Assembly: GCA_038065095.1 (NCBI GenBank)
Contig: JBBTRR010000004.1
Location: 15,998 to 79,997, forward strand
Length of the DNA: 64,000 bases
Source: Patescibacteria group bacterium
Lineage (GTDB): Bacteria > Patescibacteriota > Minisyncoccia > JACQLN01
Reading direction: 5' to 3'
Below the pieces are notes generated by a model that made no database searches, was not told the origin of the DNA, and worked only from the letters and a program-made list of their open reading frames with translations. Shown in pieces: positions 2,591-58,316 of this stretch (position 1 is the stretch's first letter; every line of letters begins with the position of its first letter). Position numbers and translations under genes: made by a program.

Positions 2591-3375
2591 TTTTGCGTGG
2601 CCGAAGTTTTGGCATAATCATTTAAAGTTTGTTGCCAAAAATAAGTTACACTATCCATTTGATTCAAAGTCATAAGTGATTTTAGTGGATCTTCCAAATC
2701 ACCCTTCATAACTTCTACTATTTTTTTTGCGCTAATAACGCTGATCATAAGATTTTTATGAAGATTTAAATATTTAGGTGGAATTTCTATTTCCGACAAG
2801 TTTCTAAAAGAATCCCCAAGGGTATTGGAATAAGAATTTAATTTATTTTGAACTCCCTCGTCGCTCAGTTTTTCCAAATCTATTTCTAAAATATTTGTCA
2901 TAGCTGTTAATATTTTTTCTGTTTCTTTTTTTGTTGAGTCAAAATATTTTTTACGGTTAGCTGATGAATCATTGGAAGTTTTAAGAACAGATGTTGGTAT
3001 TATAGGGAATAAGTTTATTTCGTTAGATTTAAAATATGGCATAACAGTTTCCACTAAAAAATCGGAGCTTTGAACTTTTTGAGCCGAAACACTTGTTAGC
3101 CCAGCCGTATCAATAACTGTACTTAGAAATTCATCTGTTAAATTTTTATCTTCTGGAGCAACGTAGGCGTTTTGATTTTCTTTTTCTTGCTCGTTAAGCT
3201 TTAAAAGCTCGCCTAAAAGTTCATCGCTGGTTTTGCCAGCCGATAATGGAGTAGAAGCTTCATCTACACCATAACTAACAGTTGTTTTTAAAACCAAGTA
3301 AGCGCCACCAAAAATACCTAGCAAGAAAACCAAAACCAAGCCAAACCAAAAGTATTTTCTGGGGTGATTAGTCAT
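2587..3375 (-). CDS. Membrane-anchored hypothetical protein (N-terminal TM)
   Basis: 262-aa ORF with N-terminal hydrophobic helix FWFGLVLVFLLGIFGGAYLVL. Translationally coupled (ATGA) to the downstream large secreted ORF. Confidence 0.5.
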   Translation of the reverse strand: MTNHPRKYFWFGLVLVFLLGIFGGAYLVLKTTVSYGVDEASTPLSAGKTSDELLGELLKLNEQEKENQNAYVAPEDKNLTDEFLSTVIDTAGLTSVSAQKVQSSDFLVETVMPYFKSNEINLFPIIPTSVLKTSNDSSANRKKYFDSTKKETEKILTAMTNILEIDLEKLSDEGVQNKLNSYSNTLGDSFRNLSEIEIPPKYLNLHKNLMISVISAKKIVEVMKGDLEDPLKSLMTLNQMDSVTYFWQQTLNDYAKTSATQK

Positions 3376-4612: not shown

Positions 4613-6518
4613 CCAATATTTCCTCTCCCATTTCGTATTCTTCAAACTCCACCAACCTTACTGGTATATCACCCAAAAAACGCGAAGGCAAGGCGGGTTC
4701 ACTTTTACCATAAATAGTTCTGCGGCGAGTAAATACAAAATAAGTCTTTTCTTTGGCCCGGGTTATGCCAACATAGGCGAGTCGTCTTTCCTCTTCCATT
4801 TGGGCAGGTTCAAACATACTTCGGGAATGTGGCAGTAAGCCTTCTTCGGCGCCAATAATAAACACTATAGGAAATTCTAAGCCTTTGGCCGAATGAAGTG
4901 TCATTAAGTTTAATGTGCCGTTTTCTTCGGAGATATCGTCGGCCGAAGTGGTTAGAGTTATTTCTTCTAAAAAAGAATAAAGCCCTTCTTGTGGTTCTAA
5001 CGAATCAAATTTAGTGGCTACTGTGGTAAGTTCTAAAATATTTTCCCAACGAGCCGCGCCTTCTTCGGTGCCATCTAAACAATAATTTTTATAATTTATT
5101 TTTTCTAGTAAAGATTTTATTAGTTCGGAAACCTTTTTATTCTCGGATTCTTTTTTAATTTCGTTAATTAAACTTAAAAAGTTTTCAAACTTAGTGTGTT
5201 TAAAATCAAAAATATTTTCGGTAAAAAGCACTTGGCTTAATGTGGTCTTACCAATACCGCGCGGTGGCACATTAACAATTCTTTTTAAACTAATAGAATC
5301 TTTTTGGTTTTGAATAAATCTTAAATAAGCAATAATATCTTTAACTTCACGGCGTTCGTAAAATTTTATGGCGCCTACCATTCGGTACGGCCAACCTGCC
5401 CTAATAATGGCCTCTTCTATGGCGCGCGATTGCGCATTGGTGCGGTAAAGAATAACAAAATCGTTAAGATCTCGGGCTATTTCTGGTTTGGCTCTTAATA
5501 TTTTTTTAATTTCTTCGGTTACAAAAAAACCTTCCTCCATTTCGTTGGCGGTTTGAACTATCTTAATTTTTTCGCCTGCGCCACGCTCGGTCCATAATTT
5601 TTTTTCTGTTTTAAAAACATTTTTGGCAATAACCGCATGAGCCGCGTCTAAAACATTTTGGGAGCTTCTATAATTTTCTTCTAAAAATATTATTTTTGTG
5701 CCAGAGTAATCTTTTTCAAAGTTAAGCATGTTTCTAAAATCGGAACCGCGAAAAAGATAAATTGATTGCCAATCGTCGCCCACCACACAAATATTTTTAT
5801 GTTTTTCGGCCAGCATTTTTAACAAGGTATATTGAACATGGTTGGTGTCTTGGTATTCGTCTACCAAAATATATTTAAATTTATTTTGATATTTGGCTAA
5901 TACTTCTGGATTATTTTTAAAAACTTTAACCAAAAGAAAAAGTAAATCATCAAAATCTAAAGCATTAGCTTCTTTTAATTTACTTTCATATTTTTCGAAA
6001 ACTTTAGCTATTATTTTTTCTCTAAAGCTACCAGCCCTTTCTGAATAAATCGTGGCATCAACCAACTCATTTTTTTGACGTGATATTGTTGAATATATTC
6101 CAGTGGCTTTAAATTGATCTGAATCTAGGCCAAGCTCGGCAATAATTTCTTTTAATAAAGAAATTACGTCGCTGACATCGTATATAACAAAATTTTTGCC
6201 GTAACCTATATTATGTATTTCGTGCCTCAAAAGCCTGGCGGCAAAAGAATGAAACGTGCCCAAAAAAACAGACATATTTTTGTCGGCGCCTAAAAGATTT
6301 TGAACACGATTTTTCATTTCGCCGGCAGCCTTATTGGTAAAAGTTAAAGCTAGAATATTTTCGGGAGCAATTCCTTGTTCTATTAAATAAGCAATTCTGT
6401 GTGTAAGAGCTTTTGTTTTTCCGCTTCCTGCACCAGCAATTATTAAAACTGGACCATTTATAGTGGTTACCGCTTCTTGTTGTTCTTTATTTAAATTTTT
6501 TAAGATGTCGGACATCAC
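4605..6518 (-). CDS. pcrA: UvrD/PcrA-family ATP-dependent DNA helicase
   Basis: Walker A GAGSGKT, LALTFTNKAAGEM and VDEYQDTN motifs of superfamily-1 UvrD/Rep helicases. Confidence 0.85.
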   Translation of the reverse strand: MMSDILKNLNKEQQEAVTTINGPVLIIAGAGSGKTKALTHRIAYLIEQGIAPENILALTFTNKAAGEMKNRVQNLLGADKNMSVFLGTFHSFAARLLRHEIHNIGYGKNFVIYDVSDVISLLKEIIAELGLDSDQFKATGIYSTISRQKNELVDATIYSERAGSFREKIIAKVFEKYESKLKEANALDFDDLLFLLVKVFKNNPEVLAKYQNKFKYILVDEYQDTNHVQYTLLKMLAEKHKNICVVGDDWQSIYLFRGSDFRNMLNFEKDYSGTKIIFLEENYRSSQNVLDAAHAVIAKNVFKTEKKLWTERGAGEKIKIVQTANEMEEGFFVTEEIKKILRAKPEIARDLNDFVILYRTNAQSRAIEEAIIRAGWPYRMVGAIKFYERREVKDIIAYLRFIQNQKDSISLKRIVNVPPRGIGKTTLSQVLFTENIFDFKHTKFENFLSLINEIKKESENKKVSELIKSLLEKINYKNYCLDGTEEGAARWENILELTTVATKFDSLEPQEGLYSFLEEITLTTSADDISEENGTLNLMTLHSAKGLEFPIVFIIGAEEGLLPHSRSMFEPAQMEEERRLAYVGITRAKEKTYFVFTRRRTIYGKSEPALPSRFLGDIPVRLVEFEEYEMGEEILEI

Positions 6519-9402: not shown

Positions 9403-10920
9403 TTAATTTTGCGGTCTATATTGCAACGCTTCGTTAATATGATCGGGCGCAATATTTTCCGATGCTGAAAGATCAGCAATAGTGCGGGCGAGTTTTAAAA
9501 CTCGGTGGTAACCGCGGGCCGAAAGATTATATTTATAAACCGCGGTTTTAATAAGTTCTTGGCATTTTTCGTCTAGCCGGCAAAATAGTTTTATATCTTT
9601 TAACCGCATTTCGCTATTAGTAGCAAAGCCAAAATTTTTAAATCTTTCACGTTGGATTTTTCTGGCACTTTCCACCCGTTCTCTAATCTTATTTGATGCT
9701 TCGGCTACACTTTCCGAGGCTAATTTTTCGTATTGTACTCTGGGCACCTCCACGTGAAGGTCTATCCTGTCTAAAAGAGGTCCAGAGATTTTTCTTTTAT
9801 ATTTTTGAACTTGAAAAGGTGTGCAAACACATTCTTTTTGTGGGTCGTTTAAAAAACCACAAGGGCAGGGGTTCATAGTGGCGGTTAAAATAAATTTAGC
9901 GGGGAAAGTTAAACTACCTTTTACACGCGAAACTGTAACAGTGCCGTCTTCTAAGGGTTGGCGCAAACTTTCTAAAACATCGCGGTTAAATTCGGGAAAT
10001 TCGTCTAAAAATAAAACACCTCGGTGCGATAAAGTTATTTCACCTGGTTTAGGCACACTGCCCCCGCCAACTAAGGCCGCGGCCGAAGACGTATGATGTG
10101 GCGATCTAAATGGCCGTGTTCTTATTAACGGTTCTTTGTGGCTGATTAAACCAGCTACCGAAAAAATTCTAGTGCTCTCTAAAATTTCTTCTTTTTCCAT
10201 AGCAGGTAATATAGAAATTAAAGCTCGAGCTAGCAATGTTTTGCCGGATCCCGGGGGCCCGCTCATTAGTATGTTGTGATTTCCTGCCGCAGTAACTTCT
10301 AGGGCGCGCTTGGCAAAATCTTGGTCTTTAATATAGGCAAAATCGTGTTCGTATTCTTGCTTAATTGGCGCGAGAATAACTGGTTCTATGGGTTTTATTA
10401 TTTTTCTTTTAGAAAAATGTTCGCAGGCTTCGGCTAGGTTTTTTAGTGGAAAAATATCTATACCATCAACTAGTCCAGCTTCCTTAGCGTTTTCTTCGGG
10501 TACATAAAGTTCTTTTGTGCCAAATGTTCTTGCCATAATAGCAATTGGCATAACACCAAAAACAGGTCTAATAGAACCGTCTAATGCGAGTTCGCCTATG
10601 AATATTTTACCTTCGGGGTCAAAATTAATCTGCCTAGAAACTAAAAGATAAGCCAAGGCTATCGGGAGGTCATATTTTGGGCCTTCTTTTTTTAGATCAG
10701 CTGGAGCCAAATTAACAATTACTCGCTTATTAGATTGATTTGGTGGAATTAAACCCGTATTTTTTATAGCAGCCGAAACCCTATCTTTAGCTTCTTCTAT
10801 GGCTTTATCTGGTAAGCCTACAATATTAAAAACATGTAGACCTCGGGCAAGGTCTACCTCAACTTCTACAGGTTGAGCATCTAAGCCAACCAAAGCCGCA
10901 GAATATATTTTACTAGGCAC
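9403..10920 (-). CDS. comM: YifB/ComM family Mg-chelatase-like AAA+ ATPase
   Basis: N-terminal Lon-like domain; Walker [15 protein letters not shown]; C-terminal Mg-chelatase ChlI-like region. Confidence 0.85.
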   Translation of the reverse strand: MPSKIYSAALVGLDAQPVEVEVDLARGLHVFNIVGLPDKAIEEAKDRVSAAIKNTGLIPPNQSNKRVIVNLAPADLKKEGPKYDLPIALAYLLVSRQINFDPEGKIFIGELALDGSIRPVFGVMPIAIMARTFGTKELYVPEENAKEAGLVDGIDIFPLKNLAEACEHFSKRKIIKPIEPVILAPIKQEYEHDFAYIKDQDFAKRALEVTAAGNHNILMSGPPGSGKTLLARALISILPAMEKEEILESTRIFSVAGLISHKEPLIRTRPFRSPHHTSSAAALVGGGSVPKPGEITLSHRGVLFLDEFPEFNRDVLESLRQPLEDGTVTVSRVKGSLTFPAKFILTATMNPCPCGFLNDPQKECVCTPFQVQKYKRKISGPLLDRIDLHVEVPRVQYEKLASESVAEASNKIRERVESARKIQRERFKNFGFATNSEMRLKDIKLFCRLDEKCQELIKTAVYKYNLSARGYHRVLKLARTIADLSASENIAPDHINEALQYRPQN

Positions 10921-12479: not shown

Positions 12480-13255
12480 TTGTTCCAAAAATAAGTCCGT
12501 GTTCCATAGCGAACGCGGATTTTTTATTGTTTATTTATGAGCGTAGCGAATAACTATAAACAATAACCCCGCCCCAAACCAAGCATTAAAAAGTTTAGTG
12601 CAAGTTGAGAGCCGAAGGCGTATCGCTAATAAACAAATTAAGTGAGCATAGTCGATTGGGTTTGATGCGGGGTATGATAAACAATAAAAAAACCTGCTCT
12701 GGATCGAGCAGGTTGTGCATCGCAACTTTTTTGTTGCAGTGCTAGAAAATAAGCACCCTGTGTTTCCCAATTTATTTTTTTATAAAGAACTAACAATAAC
12801 TGAAAAATTATACTAACAGAAACATTTGCATGTTCCGTTTTCTAGGCTCGGAACAACGTTGTTCTCCGATTGTTATCGGAGAGGATATGTTGGAGTCGGT
12901 TCAATCAACCAACTATTTATATTTGGGTCGGAACCGACCCAACAAGCTCCCGCAATTTTTTTGTTGCGAGAAAAAATTTCTAAGGTATCCCAATTTAAAT
13001 ACGGAAGCCTTAGAGTTCTAGCCAACTCATCCCATGTAGGGAATTAAAAGAACAATGTAGCACCAACATTAACCAGTTGGCACCGATAAATAAAAACAAT
13101 TGAACCAGTTAGAACTAACTTAATCTTCGCACCACACTGCATAAAAGTAAATACAACAGAATCCCAAAATGATGTCTAGGAGTGTCAACAAGTTAATCGT
13201 GCGATGGTTGCTCGGATTTTTGAAGGTATTTTTTTAAAAAGCTTGCAAAGAACAG
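12480..13255. other. ORF-poor structured region between convergent genes (candidate ncRNA)
   Basis: About 780 bp without a credible ORF. Multiple hairpins, including two similar gcaa-T7-gttgc hairpins (tcgcaacttttttgttgcag; ccgcaatttttttgttgcgag), ttgggtcggaaccgacccaa and ctccgattgttatcggag. Confidence 0.25.
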
Positions 13256-13981
13256 TCAATTTTCCACAGAGTCATTTTCATCATTTTTAAATTGTGATCT
13301 TTGCGTGGCTTTAAAATAGTTAGATATTGGAAAGTGGTAGGCTATTAAATTTGGAGTAATTTCAAAATCAAATGTTAAAGAATTTTTGTTTAAAACTTTT
13401 TTTTCAAATTTGTTTTTTAAATAATGAGTTTGAATTTTATAAGAAATTTTTTCTAAAAAATTTGCGAGATTTATTTTTTCTAAAACTTTTTCCAAAAAAG
13501 TTTTAAGCCAAATTTTTTTATTATCATATTTAACTAAAAAACTTTTTTCGTTTTCAAAATCAGTTTCATAAAAGTTTTTTAGCCAATAATTTTCACTCCA
13601 GAAATTTTTTATTTCACTTTCGTTGCCCCAAACAGGTTTTAAGTTTTTATAAAAACTTGCGCCAATTAAATCTTGGTGTGGTAGTAATGGCGAAGAGTTA
13701 GATAAAAAAATATTAAAACAAAATCTATTTTTTATTTTTTTCTTTGATCTTCTTTTGCCAAAAATAAAAGTTGCAAGTTCTAAAAAGAGTCTGTTTAACC
13801 AGACTCTTTTTTCCTCCGAAATTATTATTAAATCAATGTCGCTTTCAGGTTTAGGATTACCTACGGCGGTGGAGCCTGCTAAAAAAATTGCGCGAGTGTA
13901 AGGGCAGTTTATTAGTATTGGCAAAAATTTTTTTAGCAGAGATATTTTATAATCAATTTCTTTTTTAAAGCTAAGAAACAT
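13256..13981 (-). CDS. Nucleotidyltransferase-domain protein (Pol-beta superfamily)
   Basis: IFLAGSTAVGNPKPESDIDLIII matches the GS...DxD minimal NTase motif. Confidence 0.55.
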   Translation of the reverse strand: MFLSFKKEIDYKISLLKKFLPILINCPYTRAIFLAGSTAVGNPKPESDIDLIIISEEKRVWLNRLFLELATFIFGKRRSKKKIKNRFCFNIFLSNSSPLLPHQDLIGASFYKNLKPVWGNESEIKNFWSENYWLKNFYETDFENEKSFLVKYDNKKIWLKTFLEKVLEKINLANFLEKISYKIQTHYLKNKFEKKVLNKNSLTFDFEITPNLIAYHFPISNYFKATQRSQFKNDENDSVEN

Positions 13982-13982
13982 T

Positions 13983-15440
13983 TTATGGATTTGTAATTAT
14001 GACCGAATCAATTGCTTTTAATATAGCACTCTTAGAAGTGGTTATTATTAGAACATCGTCTATTAAAGTATATTCCACTGTAATTGTATTTATGGGTAAG
14101 TTTTTATAATGAATAGTTTGGTTTTGGTAAGTTCCTGTTTGGAAAGTCGGGCTAGCTGCTACACCTACTTTAGATAGCACTAAAGGTTTAAGATCGGTAA
14201 CCATTGTTTTTTCCCAAGCCTTAAGTGGTGCAGAAATTTTTGTGGAATCTAAAACTTTTATAGCCATACCTAATCTTGGTCCGTAACAAGAAGTAGGAGA
14301 ATTTTTTATTTTGGCACATTCGGTTTTATCGAAAGCTTTATTGCCACCGAAGGCGAATACATCAAATTCACTTGAAAGTTCTTTTTTAACTGAAATAGGA
14401 ATTTTTATCTTTAATACCTTCATTATTTCATCTAAAGTGGTTATTTCGGTGACTGAAGATTCATTTGTGGTAGTGTCGGTTACACTTTTTTGGACAATTA
14501 ATTTTGCAAGTATATTGTCTCCAACTAGTTCATTATTTATTTTTATTATGTTGGCAACATCTACGATTTGTGTATTTGGGTCATAAGAAAGCAAGCCAGT
14601 AGCAATAGGCTCTGTTGGAATTTGAACTTCTGGAGTTGCAGGTGCTTGTTCTATAGGTAACAATGGTTGCAATTCTTGAGGTGGAGGTAAAATATCTTGC
14701 GTGGTTGCTTGTTCTGAAGCTGGTGTTTGACGCAAAAAGAACCACCATATTTCTCCGGCCACAAAAGATAAAATTAAAACCGATATAACTCCAATCAAAA
14801 CCAATTTACCCCTGCCACCTTTTCTGGAAGGAAAAGAAGATACACCACCTTGTTTCGATGGTATTGGTGGTAAAGGCGGAAGATTTGGTCTAAATGTTGG
14901 CAGTGGAGGTAATGGTGGTAGTTTTGGTGGTTGCTGTTGTTGCTGCTGTATGGGTGGTTGAGTTAAAGGCCTTGGAGGAGGCATGGGAGTAGGAGATGGT
15001 CGAGATGGCATTGTAGTAGGCTCCATTGGTAATCCCAGAGGAGGAGCTTGGCGTTGTTGTTGATAATTTTCTGGTGGCATTATAGGTTTTTTAATTGGAG
15101 TTTCAAATGGTTGAGGTTTACTAGGAGAAAGTGGTGGGGGTGAAACTAGTGGTTTTGAATATTGGTGATTTATATTTTCTTCTCTGCTTACTTCTAGTTT
15201 TTTGCTTTCTGGTATCGGAAGGCCTCGTTTTATTGTGCCTATGTCTGGAAAAGAAGGTTTAATTTGGGGTTGGCTAATATTTGAAGGGGCTAGGGTTATT
15301 TCTGAATGCAAAGACCCCGAACCCTTTTTAAGGGCTTCAATATCGCCAGCCATAGTTCTTATTTTATAGGCCAGAGAGTTTTTTGGTTCTTGGGTTGTAG
15401 AAGAAGGAGGCACGGATAAAATTAAAAAATCAAAAATCAA
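13983..15440 (-). CDS. Proline-rich membrane protein, hypothetical
   Basis: 485 aa; long P/Q-rich low-complexity region, single TM (LVLIGVISVLILSFVAGEIWWFFL), C-terminal about 200-aa domain. Confidence 0.5.
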   Translation of the reverse strand: MIFDFLILSVPPSSTTQEPKNSLAYKIRTMAGDIEALKKGSGSLHSEITLAPSNISQPQIKPSFPDIGTIKRGLPIPESKKLEVSREENINHQYSKPLVSPPPLSPSKPQPFETPIKKPIMPPENYQQQRQAPPLGLPMEPTTMPSRPSPTPMPPPRPLTQPPIQQQQQQPPKLPPLPPLPTFRPNLPPLPPIPSKQGGVSSFPSRKGGRGKLVLIGVISVLILSFVAGEIWWFFLRQTPASEQATTQDILPPPQELQPLLPIEQAPATPEVQIPTEPIATGLLSYDPNTQIVDVANIIKINNELVGDNILAKLIVQKSVTDTTTNESSVTEITTLDEIMKVLKIKIPISVKKELSSEFDVFAFGGNKAFDKTECAKIKNSPTSCYGPRLGMAIKVLDSTKISAPLKAWEKTMVTDLKPLVLSKVGVAASPTFQTGTYQNQTIHYKNLPINTITVEYTLIDDVLIITTSKSAILKAIDSVIITNP

Positions 15441-21447: not shown

Positions 21448-21547
21448 TACTTCGCTCCTTCGGAGCTATGTAGGGCAAGCCCCTACATATGAATTCACTT
21501 TAACTAAAAATCCCTCCTTATTCAAGGAGGGATTTTTTACTGTTCTT

Positions 21548-24690: not shown

Positions 24691-24740
24691 CCCCGTTAGA
24701 GACAGAGGGTCGCTACGAGTCCTCGCGGTCTCTAACGGGG
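24691..24740. promoter_or_regulatory. 13-bp inverted repeat hairpin upstream of rpsA
   Basis: ccccgttagagac-(24 nt)-gtctctaacgggg in the rpsA 5' region, at the boundary of the GC-elevated TA island. Confidence 0.35.
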
Positions 24741-24782
24741 TCAAGTTTTGAGAAGAAAGATAGATATGGTAATATATTTTTT

Positions 24783-25004
24783 ATGAATGGGACTATAATC
24801 AAAAATAAAGAAGTAACGCCTTTGGGTATTAGTAAAATTCGCCGATTGTTTAGTGTTGGGTCAGAAATCACCGAACTAGCAGAGGAGGTTTTAGAAGAAT
24901 TAGGGGAATATAAACAAGAGTTTATGTTAGGATTGGAGAAGTCTGTTAAAGAGTTCAAAAGCGGAAAGCTTAAAAAGATTAAGTCGTTAAAGGACCTTAG
25001 ATAG
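24783..25004 (+). CDS. Putative type II antitoxin (partner of downstream RelE-like toxin)
   Basis: 73 aa, charged helical C-terminus, immediately upstream of a RelE/ParE toxin gene. Confidence 0.45.
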   Translation: MNGTIIKNKEVTPLGISKIRRLFSVGSEITELAEEVLEELGEYKQEFMLGLEKSVKEFKSGKLKKIKSLKDLR

Positions 25005-25020
25005 GTTCTTTTTTGATTAT

Positions 25021-25284
25021 ATGAGGAATATTTTTATAACCCCACAATTTAAAAAAGATTTATCTGAAGTTTATAAAAATATTTTTGTTAAGGCTGATAC
25101 AGTTTTATTTATATTAAAGTTAAATCCAATAGATTTTTCGCTTAAACCTAAAAAATTAAAAATTGGTAAAAATTTATGGCGGGTCAGGGTCGGCACTCAT
25201 CGTTTAGTTTATTCATTCAATAAGGATTCTTTAATACTTTTGAGAATTCGCCACCGCAAAGATGTTTACAGAGGTCTAAAATAA
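25021..25284 (+). CDS. RelE/ParE-family toxin
   Basis: 87 aa; ...KLKIGKNLWRVRVGTHRLVYSFNKDSLILLRIRHRKDVYRG is typical of RelE/StbE. Confidence 0.7.
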   Translation: MRNIFITPQFKKDLSEVYKNIFVKADTVLFILKLNPIDFSLKPKKLKIGKNLWRVRVGTHRLVYSFNKDSLILLRIRHRKDVYRGLK

Positions 25285-25288
25285 AAAT

Positions 25289-25313
25289 TCCCCCGACGCT
25301 TAGCGTCGGGGGA
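25289..25313. terminator. GC hairpin terminator (cccccgacgc family, copy 1)
   Basis: aaaaa-tcccccgacgcttagcgtcggggga between convergent genes. Confidence 0.6.
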
Positions 25314-25334
25314 TAGTGTGAATACGGCTTGGAT

Positions 25335-25769
25335 TTAATGACCTTCTAAAAATTTTAGAATATAATCAATGTATTTATGATAATCCCTTAAGCAATCATT
25401 AATAGAAGCATATACTTTTTCGTAATCTATTTTATCGTATTCATGCACTAAAAGATTTCTAGTGCCGATGCTTTTGGCGATTTCTTGGGCAAACTCTTTA
25501 GGGTAGATGTCTAAATCCGAAAGCCTTAAAAATGTTTCTCGGTAATCTTTAGGAGGCATGGTGTTTGCGGTGGCAAGTTCGGCAATAAGGTGTTCGTTGA
25601 TGTCTATAGCCCGCGAGATTGTTCGTTCCAAGAGCCGTTCTACCGTAGCTTGTTTTAAAAAATCTCCCACAATTTCTTCAATGGAAAAATTAGATAATTG
25701 AGCGAGTTTGCTCAAATCATCCTGAATAAGAGATATTTTTCTCTGAATTAAATCTTTTTTAAACATCAA
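25335..25769 (-). CDS. HEPN-domain toxin (DUF86-like)
   Basis: 144 aa; GTRNLLVHEYDKIDYEKVY contains the Rx4-6H HEPN motif. Downstream of an MNT gene (MNT-HEPN order). Confidence 0.7.
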   Translation of the reverse strand: MMFKKDLIQRKISLIQDDLSKLAQLSNFSIEEIVGDFLKQATVERLLERTISRAIDINEHLIAELATANTMPPKDYRETFLRLSDLDIYPKEFAQEIAKSIGTRNLLVHEYDKIDYEKVYASINDCLRDYHKYIDYILKFLEGH

Positions 25770-25770
25770 A

Positions 25771-26193
25771 TTATATAGCTAGAGCCTCTTGCCTCTTTTT
25801 TATAATTAACGATTCCAAATCACGTAATGACTGGCTGTCTATATAGTCTTTGAAAGCGAAGATACGATAGTCTTGGTAAGAAGTTTCATCACCGTAAAGC
25901 AAGATTCCGTTTTGGGTGGCTTCATAACGTAAAAGTATATTAGCTGGCGACAAATCTACCAGATCTATTTTTCTAAAGCCCGATGACAAAGCGTCCGGTA
26001 GTTCGCTACTGATGTTTAAGAAGGATTTATAATCAAGTAAACTATGGTTTTTCCGCAAAACCGCTATGTCTATGTCGCTGGAATCCTTCATTAAACCAGA
26101 AGCCGCACTACCAAAAACCACCACAAACTTCAGGTTGTAGTTTTGGGCGATTTTTTCCACTTGCAGTTTGCTATCCTTTATATTCAACATCAT
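25771..26193 (-). CDS. MNT-type minimal nucleotidyltransferase (HEPN/MNT antitoxin)
   Basis: VVVFGSAASGLMKDSSDIDIAVL matches the GS-x9-DxD NTase motif; 1-bp spacing to the HEPN gene. Confidence 0.75.
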   Translation of the reverse strand: MMLNIKDSKLQVEKIAQNYNLKFVVVFGSAASGLMKDSSDIDIAVLRKNHSLLDYKSFLNISSELPDALSSGFRKIDLVDLSPANILLRYEATQNGILLYGDETSYQDYRIFAFKDYIDSQSLRDLESLIIKKRQEALAI

Positions 26194-26238
26194 GGCATTA
26201 TCTTAACTAAATTTACAGAATAAAAAAAGCCCCGACGC

Positions 26239-26261
26239 AATGCGTCGGGGGTAAGATAAAA
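26239..26261. terminator. GC hairpin terminator (cccccgacgc family, copy 2)
   Basis: aaaaaaa-gccccgacgcaatgcgtcggggg. Confidence 0.6.
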
Positions 26262-26263
26262 TT

Positions 26264-26803
26264 CTATTTTTGCAATCTTAGGCTACTCGGTAGCTCTATT
26301 AGTCCCTGCCCTTTTCTTTCTGGCCATTTTGGACCAGCCTCTCTTTCCTTCTTGGCATTTTTACGGTCGCGGAATTTTTGGGCGAGCCAGAAAAATGGCC
26401 AGCTGACCACTTTAATTCCCGCGCTGTCTCCGCCGTCTACCACAATCGGTTTGCCGAACCAGAGGCCGACGAGGGTTGTGAGAAATCCGACAATGGCATA
26501 GGAAGTAAAACATGCCCTATTAAGGTAGGATGTTAAATCTAAGAGGTCTTGATACATACTTTCCTTGATGACCAACAAAGTAGATGTCGCATCTGCTACA
26601 AATAACAGCATTATGCCTATGATTGTGCCAAATAAGACAGCAGGTACATTCGATCTCTCGGATTTTTCATAGCGTATCTTAGCAGTCAAAATCGCTGACA
26701 GTGTTAAAGTGGCGGAGCAGACTAGCCAAATGAACACGTTGCTTGGTATGGCGGGATGGTAATAGGACAAAGTCCATCTGTCATTGGCTAACGACGACCA
26801 CAA
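26264..26803 (-). CDS. Small multi-TM membrane protein, hypothetical (inside TA island)
   Basis: 179 aa with three to four hydrophobic helices; locally GC-elevated sequence; bounded by GC hairpins. Confidence 0.45.
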   Translation of the reverse strand: MWSSLANDRWTLSYYHPAIPSNVFIWLVCSATLTLSAILTAKIRYEKSERSNVPAVLFGTIIGIMLLFVADATSTLLVIKESMYQDLLDLTSYLNRACFTSYAIVGFLTTLVGLWFGKPIVVDGGDSAGIKVVSWPFFWLAQKFRDRKNAKKEREAGPKWPERKGQGLIELPSSLRLQK

Positions 26804-26967
26804 AGTCTGGCCGAGATCGACAAGGATGAACGAGAAGCCAAGCTAACTTTTTCATAGGATTCTCCTACGTTTAGAGTTTTAGAAAGTGCTAATATTAATT
26901 CTAGCCATTTAGATAATATATTGTCAATAGTGAGAAAAAAGGATGGGTGTGGTAAAGTTTTACCAAT

Positions 26968-27222
26968 ATGGAAACTTACACTTATCGTATTATTATAGAG
27001 TCCGATGAAAATGGCACTTTTCACGGCTATGTGCCAGCTTTGCGGGGTTGTCATACTTGGGGCAAGACCCTGGCAGCTACTAGGGAAAATATCAAGGACG
27101 CTATAGATGTTTATTTGCGTAGCTTGAGGGCTGACGGCGAGATTATACCGCAAGACAACGGCATTGAAATTTTAGAGACTGTTAAAATTTCTCCAATAAA
27201 AAAATCTCCAATCTATGCCTAA
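26968..27222 (+). CDS. hicB: HicB-family antitoxin (UPF0150)
   Basis: 84 aa; YRIIIESDENGTFHGYVPALRGCHTWGKTLAATRENIKDAI is typical of HicB/UPF0150. Confidence 0.7.
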   Translation: METYTYRIIIESDENGTFHGYVPALRGCHTWGKTLAATRENIKDAIDVYLRSLRADGEIIPQDNGIEILETVKISPIKKSPIYA

Positions 27223-27445
27223 GTTGCCGGTTATCAGACATCAGCAACTCATCCGAGTTTTAAAGAAACTTGGTTTTTTTGAACACCCCGAGCGTGGCAG
27301 TTCTCATTTAGTTTTTAAAAATTCCGATGGAAGAGTAACTACTGTAGCGCGTCATTCTGGCGATTTTCCGCGAGGTACTCTGCGGAGTATTCTCCACGAT
27401 ATTAGAATTTCTCCAGAAGAATTTATAAAATTGCTCAAAAAATAA
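27215..27445 (+). CDS. hicA: HicA-family toxin
   Basis: 76 aa; ...GSSHLVFKNSDGRVTTVARHSGDFPRGTLRSILHDIRIS matches the HicA/YcfA consensus. Overlaps hicB by 8 bp. Confidence 0.7.
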   Translation: MPKLPVIRHQQLIRVLKKLGFFEHPERGSSHLVFKNSDGRVTTVARHSGDFPRGTLRSILHDIRISPEEFIKLLKK

Positions 27446-27448
27446 AAT

Positions 27449-27472
27449 CCCCGACGCGTGGCGTCTGGGGGT
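27449..27472. terminator. GC hairpin terminator (cccccgacgc family, copy 3)
   Basis: aaaa-tccccgacgcgtggcgtctggggg-tgtttatttttat. Confidence 0.6.
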
Positions 27473-27579
27473 GTTTATTTTTATCAGGGTTTAGCCTTGT
27501 AAATTTGGTGTCAAGATAGCAGTTTGGGCATTGAATCAACAAAAAATGTGTGTTAAATTTATACGGTATTTAATTCCCA

Positions 27580-35261: not shown

Positions 35262-35406
35262 TGTTATTAGGTATTATTTTTTTCTAAATAAGATATTTAA
35301 AAAACACTCCGATTTTTGTCGGAGTGTTTTAGTTTATCCCGTTAGAAGCTCTGTTGCCTTCTTTAAAGGTGTGGATTTGAGTTTTTAAAAATGTTACAAT
35401 TTAGAT

Positions 35407-35718
35407 ATGGAAGAGACAACCCTGTCGTCAAAAACTGAGCGATTGCCAGAGTTTTTTAGGCCACTTTTTTGGTCGTATAATTTTGATTATATTGATCCCG
35501 ATAAAGACATAAAAACAATAGTTTTGAATGTGATAAATTATGGGTATTGGAAACACTGGCATTGGTTGGTTTATCATTACGGCATAGATGTCATTAGAAA
35601 TATTTTGACCCATTTTTTGTCAACGGAACTTAGGCCGCCAGCGGAAAAACTAGCGAGGGTTGTATTCAATTTAAAATCTCTTAACAATGCATCTCGAAGC
35701 ACTAACCAAGACAGGTAG
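35407..35718 (+). CDS. Hypothetical small protein overlapping the AbiEii gene (possible cognate antitoxin)
   Basis: 103 aa; overlaps the downstream NTase toxin gene by 32 nt in a different frame (typical TA coupling). No recognisable domain. Confidence 0.3.
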   Translation: MEETTLSSKTERLPEFFRPLFWSYNFDYIDPDKDIKTIVLNVINYGYWKHWHWLVYHYGIDVIRNILTHFLSTELRPPAEKLARVVFNLKSLNNASRSTNQDR

Positions 35719-36307
35719 GGAAATTTTTCCAATTCTCAAGAATTTTTCGGAATTCTATTTAGCTGGCGGCACGGCTTTGGCTTTGCAATTAGGTCATCGC
35801 GTTTCGGCTGATTTTGATTTATTTAGCGGGATTGATATTCCGGCAGAATTACTGCCACTGGTTCAAAAGACTTTTGATAAAAAGACTTTTCAAATCAGCG
35901 TCAATAACAGAGAGGAACTGACAGTATTTATAAATGGCGTTAAGATTACTTTTTTGAATTATCCATTTCCAGTTTTAGAAGATACAACTGAATATGAAGG
36001 TTTAAAAATGTTAGGCGTTTCCGAAATAGCCACAACCAAAGCTTATACTATCGGGCGCCGAGGCTCGTTTAAAGATTATGTTGATTTATATTTTGCAGTT
36101 AAGGAAAAAATTATTGGTTTGGACGGAATTATTAAACAGGCTGATAAAAAATATGGGGGATATTTTAACGGTCGTCTGTTTTTAGAACAGTTGGTTTATT
36201 TAAATGATATTGAGGATACAGAGATTATTTTTCTAAAAGAAACAGTGGATAAAAATAATCTAGAGGAGTTTTTTGTGGCAGAAATTAAAAAGATCAAATT
36301 TGATTGA
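35687..36307 (+). CDS. AbiEii/AbiGii-family nucleotidyltransferase toxin (DUF1814)
   Basis: FYLAGGTALALQLGHRVSADFDLF and KDYVDLYF motifs are characteristic of AbiEii. Confidence 0.65.
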   Translation: MHLEALTKTGREIFPILKNFSEFYLAGGTALALQLGHRVSADFDLFSGIDIPAELLPLVQKTFDKKTFQISVNNREELTVFINGVKITFLNYPFPVLEDTTEYEGLKMLGVSEIATTKAYTIGRRGSFKDYVDLYFAVKEKIIGLDGIIKQADKKYGGYFNGRLFLEQLVYLNDIEDTEIIFLKETVDKNNLEEFFVAEIKKIKFD

Positions 36308-36447
36308 GTTTCTGAAAAAATAATATCCTCCCATTTCGGGAGGATATTTTGTTTCTTGTTCTGCTAGAAGTAAGTTGTTCCTAGATGGCTAAAGTGTGTT
36401 TTCGGCAGGACGGACTTCTAACGGGATACAGGAGGCATAAATTTATC

Positions 36448-40383: not shown

Positions 40384-40645
40384 GGGCGAGTGGATTAAAA
40401 GCAAATGTTTTTGCTTTTAATGGCCAACTACATTAATTAATATGATTTATAGGTTGGCCTTGGAGAAATTGGCAGAATTATTCTACACAAAGTGCTGGGG
40501 TGGCGAAATTGGTAGACGCACTAGCCTTAGGAGTTAGCGGGGCAACCCATGGGAGTTCGAGTCTCCCCCCCAGCACTTTGTGTAGAATACCGCAAGGATT
40601 AATCGTGACAACGTCACGATTAATGGTTCAAATCCCACCTCGCCC
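40384..40645. repeat. About 260-bp multi-level inverted-repeat structure enclosing tRNA-Leu
   Basis: Outer IR GGGCGAGtGG / CCaCCTCGCCC. Two perfect palindromes, attaaaagcaaatgtttttgcttttaat (40394-40421) and attaatcgtgacaacgtcacgattaat (40598-40624). Inner 13-bp IR ttctacacaaagt / actttgtgtagaa directly abuts the tRNA acceptor ends. Confidence 0.5.
40494..40575 (+). tRNA. tRNA-Leu (anticodon UAG), class II with long variable arm
   Basis: GCTGGGG-TG-GCG-AAATTGGTAGA-CGC-A-CTAGC-CTTAGGA-GTTAG-CGGGGCAACCCATG-GGGAG-TTCGAGT-CTCCC-CCCCAGC-A. Confidence 0.85.
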
Positions 40646-40731
40646 ACATTCAGCTTGTGTTATTTGGAAATAGTGTTAATATGTTTAAGCAACGTCGAAT
40701 GTTACAAGTAAAAATAGTTTAAAATAGTCAT

Positions 40732-43560: not shown

Positions 43561-44466
43561 TTATTCTTTTCTTCTGCGTGCGTGGAAGGCTTTGTGAATT
43601 TCTTTTAAGCCTGTGTCTGTAACGTGGGTGTATATTTGAGTTGTGGTTATATTGGCATGTCCCAGCATGGCTTGAACCGAACGTATATCGGCACCATTGC
43701 GTAATAAATCAGTTGCGAAAGAATGGCGCAATGTATGCGGGTGAATATCTTTTACAATTCCGGCTTTGGTTGCATAGTGTTTAACAATTCTTTGAACGGT
43801 TCTAGGTGTAATTCTTAAATCTTTATTCGCTTTTTGTTTTTTATCACTTATTCTTCTAGCGAATAGTGCTTCACTCATATCTTCTCTTTTAGCAATATAG
43901 TTTTCTAAAGAACGCCTGGCGGGTTCAGAAAGAAAAACCACGCGAATTTTATCGCCTTTACCGCGTACTGCAAACTCGCCACGTTTTAAATTAACTGATT
44001 CTTTATTTAACGAACAAAGTTCGGAAACACGTAATCCCGTAGAAAACAAAAGTTCTAATAAGGCTTTGTCGCGTAAGTTTTTAACAGAATTACCATTAGC
44101 AGAATCCAACAAGCGCTCTATTTCTTCGTTTTCTAAAAAGTCTATGTGCCTATCGCCAATTTTTCCCAATTCTATTTTGTCGGCGGTTAAAGTTTTTACA
44201 TCGCGTTTGGCTAAGTATTTTAAAAAATTACGTAAAGCAATTAAATGGTAGGCTTGTGTAATTTTTTTTAATGGGGGAGTTATTCGGTTTAGATGTAATC
44301 TATAGTTTCTAACTACATCGTTGGAAATACTAGAAGGTGAATTAATTTTGGCGTAATCAAAAAAGCGTCTTAGATAACGATCGTAATTTTCTATCGTTTT
44401 TATTGAACGGTTTTTTTCTATTTCTAAATAATTTAAATAATCGGTGAATAAAGATTTTATAGTCAT
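43561..44466 (-). CDS. xerC: Tyrosine site-specific recombinase (XerC/XerD family)
   Basis: C-terminal HTLRHSFATDLLRNGADIRSVQAMLGHANITTTQIYTHV contains the R..H..R..Y catalytic residues. Confidence 0.85.
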   Translation of the reverse strand: MTIKSLFTDYLNYLEIEKNRSIKTIENYDRYLRRFFDYAKINSPSSISNDVVRNYRLHLNRITPPLKKITQAYHLIALRNFLKYLAKRDVKTLTADKIELGKIGDRHIDFLENEEIERLLDSANGNSVKNLRDKALLELLFSTGLRVSELCSLNKESVNLKRGEFAVRGKGDKIRVVFLSEPARRSLENYIAKREDMSEALFARRISDKKQKANKDLRITPRTVQRIVKHYATKAGIVKDIHPHTLRHSFATDLLRNGADIRSVQAMLGHANITTTQIYTHVTDTGLKEIHKAFHARRRKE

Positions 44467-53913: not shown

Positions 53914-54107
53914 GCCGATAATGGCGGGTACAGCTTTGAGGCTTTTTTATAAGAATTTTTGATTCTAGTAGGATGAGCATAATCTTTTAAATCTTCTTGT
54001 GGAAAATCAGAAGTCATTTTTTGAATAACATCAAAACGCTCGGCCTTTTCCACGAGCTCTTGGTATCTTTCTTTGGTTAAGGTTATCTTACCATTCATAG
54101 TATACAC
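53910..54107 (-). CDS. Putative antitoxin partner of RelE-like toxin
   Basis: 65 aa immediately upstream with 4-bp overlap to the toxin gene. Confidence 0.45.
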   Translation of the reverse strand: MYTMNGKITLTKERYQELVEKAERFDVIQKMTSDFPQEDLKDYAHPTRIKNSYKKASKLYPPLSA

Positions 54108-54174
54108 TTTAGCTAAAATGTCTGTATTTGTAAAATAATTTGCCAGTAGGTAGTAAAATTGATATCATTTCGGT

Positions 54175-54450
54175 ATGAGAAAAAGGACTAAAATACAATC
54201 ACAATATTATGTAACTTATGAACGCGATGGCAAAAAAGGTTATGTGGCTTCGGCGCCAGCCATCACTGGTTGCGTTGTTTATGGAAAAACGCTTGAGGAA
54301 GCTCACCAGAACATAAGTTCGGCCATTAAAGAATGTTTGGAAGTGATTCATCAGTTTAACAAAGATACTCCTAAAGAAACTATGGAGCCAAAAGAAGTAC
54401 GCAAATTTTCCTTCGTTAAAGTTAGACAGCGTGAATATGCTAAAACTTAA
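54175..54450 (+). CDS. hicB: HicB-family antitoxin (UPF0150)
   Basis: YYVTYERDGKKGYVASAPAITGCVVYGKTLEEAHQNISSAI parallels the HicB copy at 26968. Confidence 0.65.
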   Translation: MRKRTKIQSQYYVTYERDGKKGYVASAPAITGCVVYGKTLEEAHQNISSAIKECLEVIHQFNKDTPKETMEPKEVRKFSFVKVRQREYAKT

Positions 54451-54658
54451 ACCAATCGGTTATGGTGAGTTTGCAAGAAAACTGATTCGCGCTGGCTATA
54501 TGCCTATTAGAAAATCTAAACACACTATCTATTTTCATTCCGTAAAAAATATAACTATACCTTTTCCTCATAAACATGCTCACGACATACCTACTGGCCT
54601 GTTAAATAAACTTATCAAAGAAATGGGTTTATCGCGCGAGGATTTTGGGCGACTTTAG
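54431..54658 (+). CDS. hicA: HicA-family toxin
   Basis: 75 aa; ...KHTIYFHSVKNITIPFPHKHAHDIPTGLLNKLIKEMGLSREDF (HicA/YcfA pattern). Overlaps hicB. Confidence 0.65.
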   Translation: MNMLKLKPIGYGEFARKLIRAGYMPIRKSKHTIYFHSVKNITIPFPHKHAHDIPTGLLNKLIKEMGLSREDFGRL

Positions 54659-54805
54659 AAATTTTATTTTACTCTCGTTGATGTTTAGTATCAACTCACC
54701 CCGATTTTAAATCTGGGCTTTACACAGTAGCAACTGTTTTGGGCACACACATATGGCGGATTGATTAATTTGTCAGTTTTATAATGCTGGGTTATACTAC
54801 TTTCA

Positions 54806-55030
54806 ATGATAAGGATAAGCTATAGCAAGCATTCTTTAGATAGATTAAGAAAAAGAGGTATATCTAAAAATCTTGTTCACGAGGCTATAGAGAAAGGACA
54901 AGAAAGGAAGTTGCAATTAAATCTGGGAACTGTTAAATGTGTTTATGCTAAGAGTGGCAAAAAGTTAGTGGTTATTTATCTTCAGAACAAAGAGAATTTT
55001 AAAATTGTAACTGCTTACTACCAAGATTAA
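54806..55030 (+). CDS. DUF4258-family putative toxin
   Basis: 74 aa; ISYSKHSLDRLRKRGISKNLVHEAIEKG...KLVVIYLQ...KIVTAYY matches the DUF4258 consensus. Confidence 0.6.
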   Translation: MIRISYSKHSLDRLRKRGISKNLVHEAIEKGQERKLQLNLGTVKCVYAKSGKKLVVIYLQNKENFKIVTAYYQD

Positions 55031-55045
55031 AAGTAATATATAAAT

Positions 55046-55267
55046 ATGAAAATAAAATACGACAAAGAAGTGGATGTTTTATATATAGAACTTAAGAAAA
55101 GCCGGGTATATAAAACCGTGGAAACTCGGGACAGTTTTTTAATTGATTTTGATAAAGAAGGTCAAGTTATAGGTTTTGAAATATTGGGTTATTCTAAAAC
55201 GGTGCCTAAAGTGGACGAAAGATTTTCAGTGTATGCTGGGCAAAGCAGGATCAAAATTCCTGTATAG
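55046..55267 (+). CDS. DUF2283-family putative antitoxin
   Basis: 73 aa; MKIKYDKEVDVLYIELKK... is the canonical DUF2283 N-terminus; paired with DUF4258. Confidence 0.6.
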   Translation: MKIKYDKEVDVLYIELKKSRVYKTVETRDSFLIDFDKEGQVIGFEILGYSKTVPKVDERFSVYAGQSRIKIPV

Positions 55268-55518
55268 AATTATTTTTGTCGGGCATTGGGTTGTTGAGTA
55301 TATACATATCATTTTAACCTTGGGGTGTGAACCACAACAAGGTATTTACTTTTTTGCCTTATAAGTGTTAAGTTTAATTTGGTATTAATTTAAGATTTAG
55401 AGTTTGTTGGAGGTATACTTTGGGCCAAAAGGTACGAAAAGGTGGCACAAAGCATTAATATTTTACGTTTTTAAAATGTTTTTACAGGTTTTAAACCATC
55501 CGATAACTTACACACAAA

Positions 55519-57543: not shown

Positions 57544-57597
57544 TATTTCTTATAACTTAAAAAATCACTCCGATCTATTCGGGGTGGTTTTAGTTTG

Positions 57598-57744
57598 GAG
57601 TGGGTAAGGGGAATCGGTCACAGATAATGCCTCACTGTCGCTCGGTATTTCTGCGACCCCAGCTCATCGCAATTTTTTTATAAAAATTGACGATTCCGCT
57701 TTTCGATTCCCCACGTGGGCAAATAAATTTGCCCACTTTACCCG
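57598..57744. repeat. tRNA-Gly-associated miniature element with conserved core (copy A)
   Basis: Begins with gagtgggtaaggggaatcg, a 19-bp copy (1 mismatch) of the 3' end of tRNA-Gly at 57786-57804. A conserved core gtcaca...tcgcgaccccagctcatcRcaatttt...aaaattgaYgattccgctttt is shared with 57963-58048. It then carries the inverted copy cgattcccc and a hairpin gtgggcaaataaatttgcccac. Confidence 0.55.
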
Positions 57745-57789
57745 ATAACAAAAACAGAACCTAAAGAGTAGGTTCTGTTTTTGTTATTG

Positions 57790-57860
57790 AGCGGGTAAGG
57801 GGAATCGAACCCCTAGCAACAGCTTGGAAAGCTGTGGTATTACCACTATACGATACCCGC
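57790..57860 (-). tRNA. tRNA-Gly (anticodon UCC)
   Basis: GCGGGTA-TC-GTAT-AGTGGTA-ATAC-C-ACAGC-TTTCCAA-GCTGT-TGCT-AGGGG-TTCGATT-CCCCT-TACCCGC-T, with discriminator U73 as in bacterial tRNA-Gly. Confidence 0.85.
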
Positions 57861-57945
57861 CTACGCTCGCTGCGAGCTATGGCGGGCAAGCCCGCCAATG
57901 GTTAGCGAAGTTTCTTTTAAATTTATTCCTTCGTTTGACTTGGTC

Positions 57946-58050
57946 GGGGCCGCCGAGAATCGGTCACAACTCTCGCCTCGTCGTCACTCGGCTCGGTCGC
58001 GACCCCAGCTCATCACAATTTTCTGCTGAAAATTGATGATTCCGCTTTTT
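57946..58050. repeat. tRNA-Pro-associated miniature element with conserved core (copy B)
   Basis: Begins with ggggccgccgagaatcg, a direct repeat of the tRNA-Pro 3' end cggggcgccgagaatcg at 58108-58124, then the same about 70-bp core as copy A. Confidence 0.55.
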
Positions 58051-58106
58051 TCTTCTCGACACACGACAATAAATCGTCGTGCTGCTCCCTCCTTCACTTC
58101 GTTCAG

Positions 58107-58177
58107 TCGGGGCGCCGAGAATCGAACTCGGCCTACCTGTTCCCAAAACAGGCGTACTACCAATATACGACGCCCCG
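58107..58177 (-). tRNA. tRNA-Pro (anticodon UGG)
   Basis: CGGGGCG-TC-GTAT-ATTGGTA-GTAC-G-CCTGT-TTTGGGA-ACAGG-TAGG-CCGAG-TTCGATT-CTCGG-CGCCCCG-A. Confidence 0.85.
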
Positions 58178-58316
58178 CCTTCGCCCACCCTTCGCCAAAG
58201 GCTACGGAGTGGCAAGTAATGCTACGGCGGGCAAGCCCGCTTAAGCACTCAAGCTACTAACATCTACTCTATCAAATAGCCCAAATTTAAGAAAGGTGTT
58301 GTATAATTAAAAGATA

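Follow-up and report, generated by a model that had tools for sequence, protein, structure and literature searches.

A regenerated tRNA gene accompanied by a displaced fragment of it is the classical footprint of genomic islands (PMC4383910), and group I introns are known to insert in the T-loop of transfer-messenger RNA (tmRNA) and to occur in Patescibacteria (PMC11915505, PMC13011429). Here we describe two small elements in a 64,000-nt stretch of Patescibacteria (Minisyncoccia) DNA from Hainich groundwater, called the window when taken as a whole. They lie behind the genes for tRNA-Gly(UCC) (copy A) and tRNA-Pro(UGG) (copy B), are read here on the minus (tRNA-sense) strand, and consist of a structured core associated with a duplication of the tRNA 3' end. 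We favor, with moderate confidence, their interpretation as integrase-less, att-flanked, miniature non-autonomous integrative cassettes that recombine within an 18-22 nt repeat, apparently an undescribed family of miniature, enzyme-less elements in Patescibacteria.

Behind each of the two genes, as called by ARAGORN and Rfam, a near-exact copy of the segment running from the T-loop to the discriminator base is found 163-192 bp downstream. The tRNA-Gly repeat (GAGCGGGTAAGGGGAATCG) is exact at 57789-57807 and recurs with a single mismatch at 57598-57616; a search of the whole 64 kb with up to three mismatches finds this 19-mer nowhere else, and 100 shuffles contain no match. The tRNA-Pro repeat (GCCGAGAATCG) occurs in the window only at 58114-58124 and 57952-57962, the full 18-nt copy differing from the gene by one inserted base. 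The 3'-end duplications claimed in a preliminary description of this DNA are thus borne out for both genes by the repeat search. Both duplicated ends are directly followed by CCA, which the two functional genes lack, a pattern that is not kept in the related locus L055.

The two trailers also share a core (57611-57728 and 57957-58074, spacing 346), whose junction falls directly after gaatcg and whose 24-mer matches within the window are confined to these two places. The preliminary description had put this core at about 70 bp; it is real and its junction lies where proposed, but the conserved unit is larger, about 95 nt, and is preceded by a hairpin, hp1 (Table 1). Searching the whole window with the family covariance model (CM), filters off, returns two copies only, and hairpins of the hp1 type (loop AUUUAU) are likewise limited to the two elements, bar a weak 6-bp chance match at 30464. 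Both copies have the order hp1-Y-core-Z, where Z is the distal duplicated end and Y a segment pairing with it; a further segment, X, does so with the acceptor portion of Z. The inverted tRNA-derived end previously noted in copy A is present there but is not peculiar to it, copy B also having a Z-pairing segment. X and hp1 are optional, L055 A and L054 having neither, and the acceptor-like stem is poorly kept in copy B, L043 and L019. A terminator-like hairpin lies 3' of each Z; after copy A it is a bidirectional terminator shared with the hup gene. No open reading frame (ORF) fits inside the 150-190 bp of the element, which is therefore non-autonomous.

Table 1 Parts of the two elements and their host genes, listed 5' to 3' on the minus strand
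Feature	Position	Strand	Description
tRNA-Gly(UCC), functional	57789..57860	-	ARAGORN tcc, Rfam 64.6 bits; 3' end from the T-loop is the proximal repeat; no encoded CCA (..CCCGCU followed by CAA)
Proximal hairpin, perfect, 19 bp, with flanking A/U tracts (bidirectional terminator type)	57745..57787	-	directly 3' of tRNA-Gly
X, CGGGUAA(A)	57737..57744	-	reverse complement of the tRNA-Gly acceptor 3' strand UUACCCG
hp1 of copy A, GUGGGCAAAUUUAUUUGCCCAC	57715..57736	-	family-specific hairpin; stems covary between copies
Y of copy A, GGGGAAUCGAA	57702..57712	-	exact reverse complement (11/11) of tRNA-Gly nt 54-64, T-loop and T-stem 3' strand; forms stem P1 with Z
Core A, three-way junction	57617..57701	-	CM 114 bits; P2 with GGA/GA internal loop; P3 with invariant G.U
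Z of copy A, CGAUUCCCCUUACCCACU + CCA	57596..57616	-	distal direct repeat of tRNA-Gly nt 56-73, 17/18 identical
tRNA-Pro(UGG), functional	58106..58177	-	ARAGORN tgg, Rfam 57.9 bits; no encoded CCA (..CCCCGA followed by CUG)
Spacer CUGAACGAAGUGAAGGAGGGAGCAG	58082..58105	-	homologous to the start of the tRNA-Pro pseudo-3'-half (GUGAAGGAGCAG..) in L054, L043, L044, L056
hp1 of copy B, CACGACGAUUUAUUGUCGUG	58062..58081	-	from the fold
Y of copy B, GUCGAGAAGAA	58050..58060	-	pairs with the T-loop/T-stem 3' part of Z; decayed complement; L055 has ..GGAAUCGAA there
Core B, three-way junction as in A	57963..58049	-	CM 108.5 bits; 70% identity with core A across the CM-aligned span, in which Y and a portion of Z are counted
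Z of copy B, CGAUUCUCGGCGGCCCCGA + CCA	57941..57962	-	distal copy of tRNA-Pro nt 56-73, one inserted base

That these are inserts is suggested by comparison with related loci, namely L054, L055 and L056 (92%, 90% and 84% PilB identity to the window, respectively) and L041 and L044 (86% and 83% RNase Y identity). In L044 and L056 the tRNA-Gly gene runs straight into its flank with no core, and none of the seven tRNA genes of L047 carries a copy. In L054, the flank following Z (CAAAAUUGCAACAAUUUUGAGCG..) equals the sequence directly 3' of the real tRNA-Gly in L056, which makes Z the displaced native end; by analogy with L054 and L056, Z of copy A can be read in the same way. To judge from these alignments, the insert would have brought the 3' end that the gene now has, together with the proximal hairpin; that of the window is read as insert-borne because L054 and L055 have another version in this place. 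We rejected the converse, a native proximal terminator with insertion behind it, since L054 and L055 share this terminator despite different post-Z flanks and the native flank follows Z in L054. The empty tRNA-Gly alleles and the native flank after Z support the attL/attR-like reading of the repeats put forward in the preliminary description. Across the 26 tRNA and tmRNA genes of the examined loci, the 3' end is repeated downstream in near-identical form only beside a core or beside the tRNA-Pro pseudo-halves described below. The native tRNA-Gly and tRNA-Pro genes of the relatives encode CCA, like the Z copies of the window, a match given little weight because CCA is lost in the Z copies of L055; on the same two observations, CCA after Z was rejected as a sign of an RNA intermediate. 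The L041 contig (CAYJTN010000013.1) ends 73 bp past the hup stop, just before the position of the window's tRNA-Gly and tRNA-Pro, and repeats may break the assembly there.

The family was sought by an exact-motif scan (one genome per species), a metagenome scan and then the CM. The first genome-wide pattern scan gave 31 loci, two of them true (L013, a Paceibacterota metagenome-assembled genome (MAG), and L019, a Saccharibacteria MAG) and 29 due to chance, of which 21 represent one conserved coding motif, consistent with an S1-domain protein, and the remaining eight are unrelated matches, all scoring at most 18 bits with the model; L001 and L035 are chance matches too. The metagenome scan yielded L033 and L034, which like L013 and L019 are distant members found first by exact motif, and the CM added a diverged third copy in L034 as well as copies in the window's relatives L043 and L055. 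A weak CM match in L043 (11007-11086) was judged not to be an element copy. The earlier proposal that the core belongs to a family found beside other tRNA genes is thereby upheld, with copies at tRNA and tmRNA genes of other Patescibacteria (Paceibacterota, Saccharibacteria and unbinned contigs). The hosts are tRNA-Gly (window, L043, L055 and, with a variant core, L054), tRNA-Pro (window, L055), tRNA-Lys (L033), tRNA-Arg (L034), an intron-containing tRNA-Met(CAU)-like gene (L013) and tmRNA (L019). All copies lie in the same orientation downstream of a gene with a tRNA-like end, and all 11 are miniature, the core beginning about 45-115 nt past the gene; in L034 a second, truncated copy stands in tandem at the contig end.

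Y follows the sequence of its target. It is complementary to the T-loop and T-stem 3' strand of the host gene at 11/11 positions in window A, L043, L054 and L019, and at 12/12 in L013, where it tracks the unusual T-loop UGCGAUU as AAUCGCA, and its versions differ between Gly, Pro, Met and tmRNA targets. The host gene of L013, missed by ARAGORN, carries a group I intron in its anticodon loop (2941-3140, minus strand; RF00028, 62.8 bits); a first reading of this gene as a tmRNA was rejected in favor of the intron-bearing tRNA-Met(CAU)-like gene.

The trailers of A and B fold alike on the minus strand (z = -10.9 and -5.1), more strongly than on the plus strand, and the core folds as a three-way junction on the tRNA-sense strand, in a module of about 85-105 nt across the family. 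In an alignment of 10 copies, 94.6% of the cells are paired and 26 of the 31 pairs have changed on both sides, values matched by none of 500 shuffles, with slid control alignments reaching 30-46% paired. A G.U pair in helix P3 is invariant in 10/10 copies, identifying the tRNA-sense strand as the structured one, and the G.U pattern is strand-specific; P1, formed by Y and Z, equals the duplex of tRNA nt 56-64. Conservation is focused at the junction—AAAGCGGAAUC, the GGA/GA internal loop, GAGCUGGGGUCG and GUGAC—and the helix tips are variable. True copies score 54-118 bits with the CM; unrelated loci in which the search motifs occur by chance, 248 kb in all, reach at most 18 bits. Rfam 15 gives only sub-threshold small RNA and cis-regulatory matches over the core (17.6-20.1 bits against gathering thresholds of 55-60, E up to 10), a gathering-threshold Rfam scan of L013, L019, L033 and L034 reports tRNA, tmRNA and one group I intron and nothing else, and scans of viral contigs and BLAST against phages and plasmids returned nothing real. 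A self-cleaving ribozyme was also considered, the junction being compared by eye with the hammerhead, hairpin and twister consensus, and rejected: CUGAUGAG of L019 is not conserved and there is no Rfam match.

Different elements stand at orthologous sites. Measured over the CM-aligned span including the Y and Z frame, orthologous copies are 58% (window A and L055 A) and 61% (window B and L055 B) identical; the identity is 70% for window A and B and 74% for L043 and L055 A. One core type comprises window A and B, L013, L019, L033 and L034b, and a second L043, L055 A and B and L034c; the interior of L054 is a third type, unalignable, yet again a three-way junction in the same Y/Z frame. L054 and L055 have the proximal hairpin and spacer in common and unrelated cores, and the window and L043 have X-hp1 in common and different core subtypes. 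Such a mosaic would fit repeated site-specific replacement or recombination between elements.

The tRNA-Pro locus has more layers. In L043, L044, L054 and L056, one or two pseudo-3'-halves, extending from the anticodon stem to the acceptor end, stand behind tRNA-Pro; they stem from different once-functional alleles (T-arms CCGAG, CUGGG, CCGGG and CUCGAG) and their stacking order varies. Copy B aligns with the intact, core-less pseudo-half of L054 including both flanks, with hp1 in place of GUA and the core in place of the first two T-loop bases, and the flank of its Z (CCAAGUCAAAC) is orthologous to that of the L054 pseudo-half. The stacks lie on the minus strand at 12700-12850 (L043), 13190-13385 (L044), 9690-9745 (L054) and 4730-4840 (L056), separated by spacers of 9-23 nt ending in ..GUGAA or ..GAUGAA, and one pseudo-half of L043 has a 23-nt insertion in its T-loop.

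A cassette of this kind would enter tRNA and tmRNA genes in the T-loop, between nt 55 and 56. It would bring a new 3' end for the gene, in most cases along with a terminator hairpin of its own, and would push the native 3' end (Z, nt 56-73) and the native flank 150-190 bp downstream, generating the attL/attR-like direct repeat. The body would comprise the optional X and hp1, then Y and the three-way-junction module; pairing of Y and X with Z would let a single strand restore the target segment as a duplex with the junction as its cap. We infer that movement occurs by site-specific recombination within the 18-22 nt repeat, with an enzyme acting in trans, and the circle junction to be expected would be ..GUGAC-CGAUUCCCCUUACCCGCU-CAAUAAC..; alternatively, the element might have no enzyme of its own and spread through transformation and homologous recombination, the tRNA body and Z serving as arms. 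The conserved junction would be needed for movement, or would be a small RNA cargo. Because Y and X rebuild the target duplex, a folded single-strand substrate, by analogy with integron attC or CTX attP, is plausible. We give low credence to a more specific version, in which the mobile form is a folded single strand, either DNA or, through a copy step, RNA, the junction recruits a host enzyme that swaps strands in the near-universal T-loop, and the whole is an attC/CTX-like protein-less parasite of tRNA and tmRNA genes that retargets by recopying the target sequence.

As to the enzyme, the preliminary description had linked the element to the XerC/D-like gene at 43561-44466. This link finds no support: in L044 and L047, neither of which has the element, the gene keeps its place beside trpS and nusA, and it is regarded as a syntenic housekeeping gene. 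It is the one recombinase gene among the window ORFs scanned.

Several observations weigh against the cassette reading. No transposase, reverse transcriptase, TnpB or dedicated integrase was found in the window ORFs scanned or beside the annotated copies (those other than L013, L019, L033 and L034). The core occupies the exact place of the overlap region of a classical tyrosine integrase, a misfit for a standard attP. With Y and Z 85-105 nt apart and Y the reverse complement of the loop, there is no contiguous core site with inverted arms around a 6-8 bp overlap at attR. No excised form, circle junction or within-population empty allele was seen, and the locus is invariant across five Hainich contigs that encode the same HU protein. 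In four relatives, Z remains 17-18/18 identical to the gene next to flanks that have diverged, a pattern that gene conversion, or selection for an RNA mimicking tRNA, could explain in place of mobility. At the Pro site, to judge from the alignment with L054, the core may have entered an existing, older and longer fragment or may have been precisely lost in L054, and the 3'-end duplication and the core may be separate events. Finally, the exact-motif scans, through ascertainment, account for part of the likeness of type 1 cores between classes.

The first alternative, which we regard as unlikely, is a host-serving small RNA gene, derived from and mimicking tRNA, in which X-hp1-Y-core-Z would form an acceptor/T-arm minihelix with a three-way junction replacing the T-loop, inherited mostly vertically, with stems matched by gene conversion, and often lost. 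A functional RNA would account for the strong strand-specific covariation and invariant junction sequence, for the retention of Z where flanks and even CCA diverge, for the terminator-like hairpin after each Z and for the occupation of both sites in the window as well as in L055; moreover, copy B lies inside the tRNA-Pro-to-tRNA-Gly transcription unit and so is probably transcribed. Against it stand the absence of the element from the close relatives L044 and L056 and from all tRNA genes of L047, the different subtypes held by orthologous sites, the dispensability of X and hp1 and the poorly kept acceptor-like stem. There is also no matching Rfam family, and the Gly copies stand behind a strong terminator with no promoter match, in a promoter and terminator scan that was uninformative.

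Quite improbable in our view is an origin as decay remnants of ordinary integrase-bearing islands or prophages in tRNA genes, in which internal deletions left attL/attR with only the attP arms, the core being an attP-arm feature conserved in one island family. The 3'-end direct repeat and displaced native flank are exactly as in Islander-type islands (PMC4383910), and the stacked pseudo-3'-halves show heavy traffic at the tRNA-Pro gene; yet 11/11 copies are miniature, with no adjacent integrase or cargo, one compact layout is found again in different Patescibacteria classes, and RNA-type covariation is unexpected for double-stranded protein-binding arms. The phage, plasmid and viral collections searched are without a match.

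We hold it highly doubtful that the core is a separate T-loop-homing insertion into harmless, pre-existing pseudo-tRNA fragments, either intron-like or a guide-RNA scaffold of TnpB/IS200-IS605 type with Z as 3' guide, the tRNA-end duplication being earlier and unrelated. Its scaffold followed by an 18-nt target is a layout that we take to resemble right-end guide RNAs, but no TnpB, IscB or IS110 gene is found among the scanned window ORFs, nor a TnpB or IscB Pfam domain in these ORFs or the annotated loci. Window B does equal the L054 pseudo-half plus hp1 and core, and at tRNA-Gly one and the same Y/Z frame holds three different cores (window, L055, L054); against this, no Gly site has the duplicated end without a core, and Y is the reverse complement of the T-loop rather than a direct copy, so that the frame is more than a split T-arm. 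T-loop subsites of tmRNA are known to hold group I introns (PMC11915505), but the core has no group I match and its 85-105 nt are far under the size of a group I intron. The probability of a generic tRNA trailer or terminator with chance similarity to tRNA is practically negligible: the trailers are indeed hairpin-rich and have A/U-tract terminators, but no shuffle matches are expected for the repeats and core, the stems covary and relatives have empty sites.

Other observations at tRNA genes are recorded here. A conserved 5' leader precedes tRNA-Gly, tRNA-Pro and tRNA-Ile in the window (57876-57895, 58221-58240 and about 21450-21490, minus strand) and occurs also in L043, L055 and L056; it consists of a GC hairpin with a CUUG loop (GGCGGGCUUGCCCGCC or GUAGGGGCUUGCCCUAC), AUAGC and, some 10-20 nt ahead of the tRNA 5' end, another short hairpin, and may be a promoter-proximal or processing signal. 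Within 40394-40660 of the window, tRNA-Leu(tag) (40494-40576) is bracketed by a 14-nt inverted repeat (ATTCTACACAAAGT / ACTTTGTGTAGAAT) and followed by a hairpin and a foreign tRNA 3' fragment (GGTTCAAATCCCACCTCGCCCACA, 40625-40648). The acceptor 5' strand that matches this fragment, GGGCGAG, is found upstream, at about 40394, as if an older tRNA had been gutted and the working one nested inside it. A hairpin, AAAAGCAAA(U/A)GU(U/C)UUUGCUUUU, lies within a longer GC-rich leader upstream of the same tRNA-Leu (about 40405-40432) and of tRNA-Pro in L043, L044 and L054. Small GIY-YIG ORFs of 83 and 87 aa, whose stop abuts the tRNA 5' end, are present in L054 (9355-9606, minus strand; tRNA-Gly) and L047 (12025-12288, plus strand; tRNA-Pro) and could be linked to tRNA-allele replacement. 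Elsewhere, L054 carries a bAvd and reverse transcriptase pair of the diversity-generating retroelement type between pilB and pilC (13723-15089), absent from the window. The window encodes a 188-aa protein with the PaaX central Cas2-like domain (PF20803; 19654-20220, plus strand), with no CRISPR context noticed, and dense toxin-antitoxin and abortive-infection genes (ParE, HepT with a nucleotidyltransferase, two HicAB pairs, AbiEii, DUF4258/DUF2283) at about 24700-27500, 35400-36310 and 54100-55270.

In the searched literature there is no description of an integrase-less, structure-bearing element of 150-190 bp of this kind. If active, these cassettes would be among the smallest site-specific integrative elements known and an overlooked source of tRNA gene fragments and of tRNA-allele turnover in the reduced genomes of Patescibacteria; if the junction is instead a functional RNA that mimics tRNA, it would represent a new class of RNA associated with tRNA and tmRNA genes. 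In both cases, the inserts can break assemblies and may confuse tRNA annotation, and the conserved junction provides a concrete covariance model for a census, in which co-occurrence could reveal the moving enzyme.

With the genomic islands and prophages that tyrosine integrases place in tRNA and tmRNA genes (Islander-type, with sublocations in the T-loop and the anticodon loop) the elements share element-borne regeneration of the gene, a displaced native 3' fragment and flank, a breakpoint in the T-loop, the use of tmRNA and the existence of empty sites; they differ in their size of 150-190 bp, the lack of an integrase or cargo gene, the three-way junction at the crossover position and the internal inverted copy of T-loop and T-stem. 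Like CIMEs (cis-mobilizable elements, att-flanked derivatives of integrative elements that lack an integrase), they have attL/attR-like flanks, no recombination genes of their own and a presumed dependence on an outside enzyme, and the tandem in L034 recalls accretion; CIMEs, however, span kilobases and are recognisably deleted ICEs or IMEs, whereas here the miniature form recurs across Patescibacteria classes and no parent element is known.

Folded single-strand sites (integron attC and the CTX-phage attP(+) used by XerCD) may offer a likeness in strand-specific structure, in a stem that would rebuild the target duplex, in a variable distal part and in a conserved part near the crossover. This is a resemblance only. 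No IntI was found, the target is the T-arm of a tRNA and, by eye, the R/L box consensus of attC was not seen. MITEs and small palindromic repeats (Correia, RPE, REP/BIME) are similarly small, non-coding, structured, multi-copy and non-autonomous, and RPEs occur inside RNA genes. The MITE-like family of the preliminary description holds as far as non-autonomy goes, but these are not classical MITEs: they have no terminal inverted repeats of their own, Y being target-specific, no target duplication of short, fixed length (their repeats measure 18-22 nt or form a 37-nt half) and no dispersed copies in 64 kb, both copies lying at tRNA T-loop positions.

Group I introns of Patescibacteria tRNA and tmRNA occur in the same organisms and at nearly the same T-loop nucleotide position (PMC11915505, PMC13011429), and L013 has both in one tRNA gene. 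In contrast to these introns, the element has a core of 85-105 nt without an Intron_gpI (RF00028) match and leaves the functional gene uninterrupted, the insert standing behind a complete 3' end.

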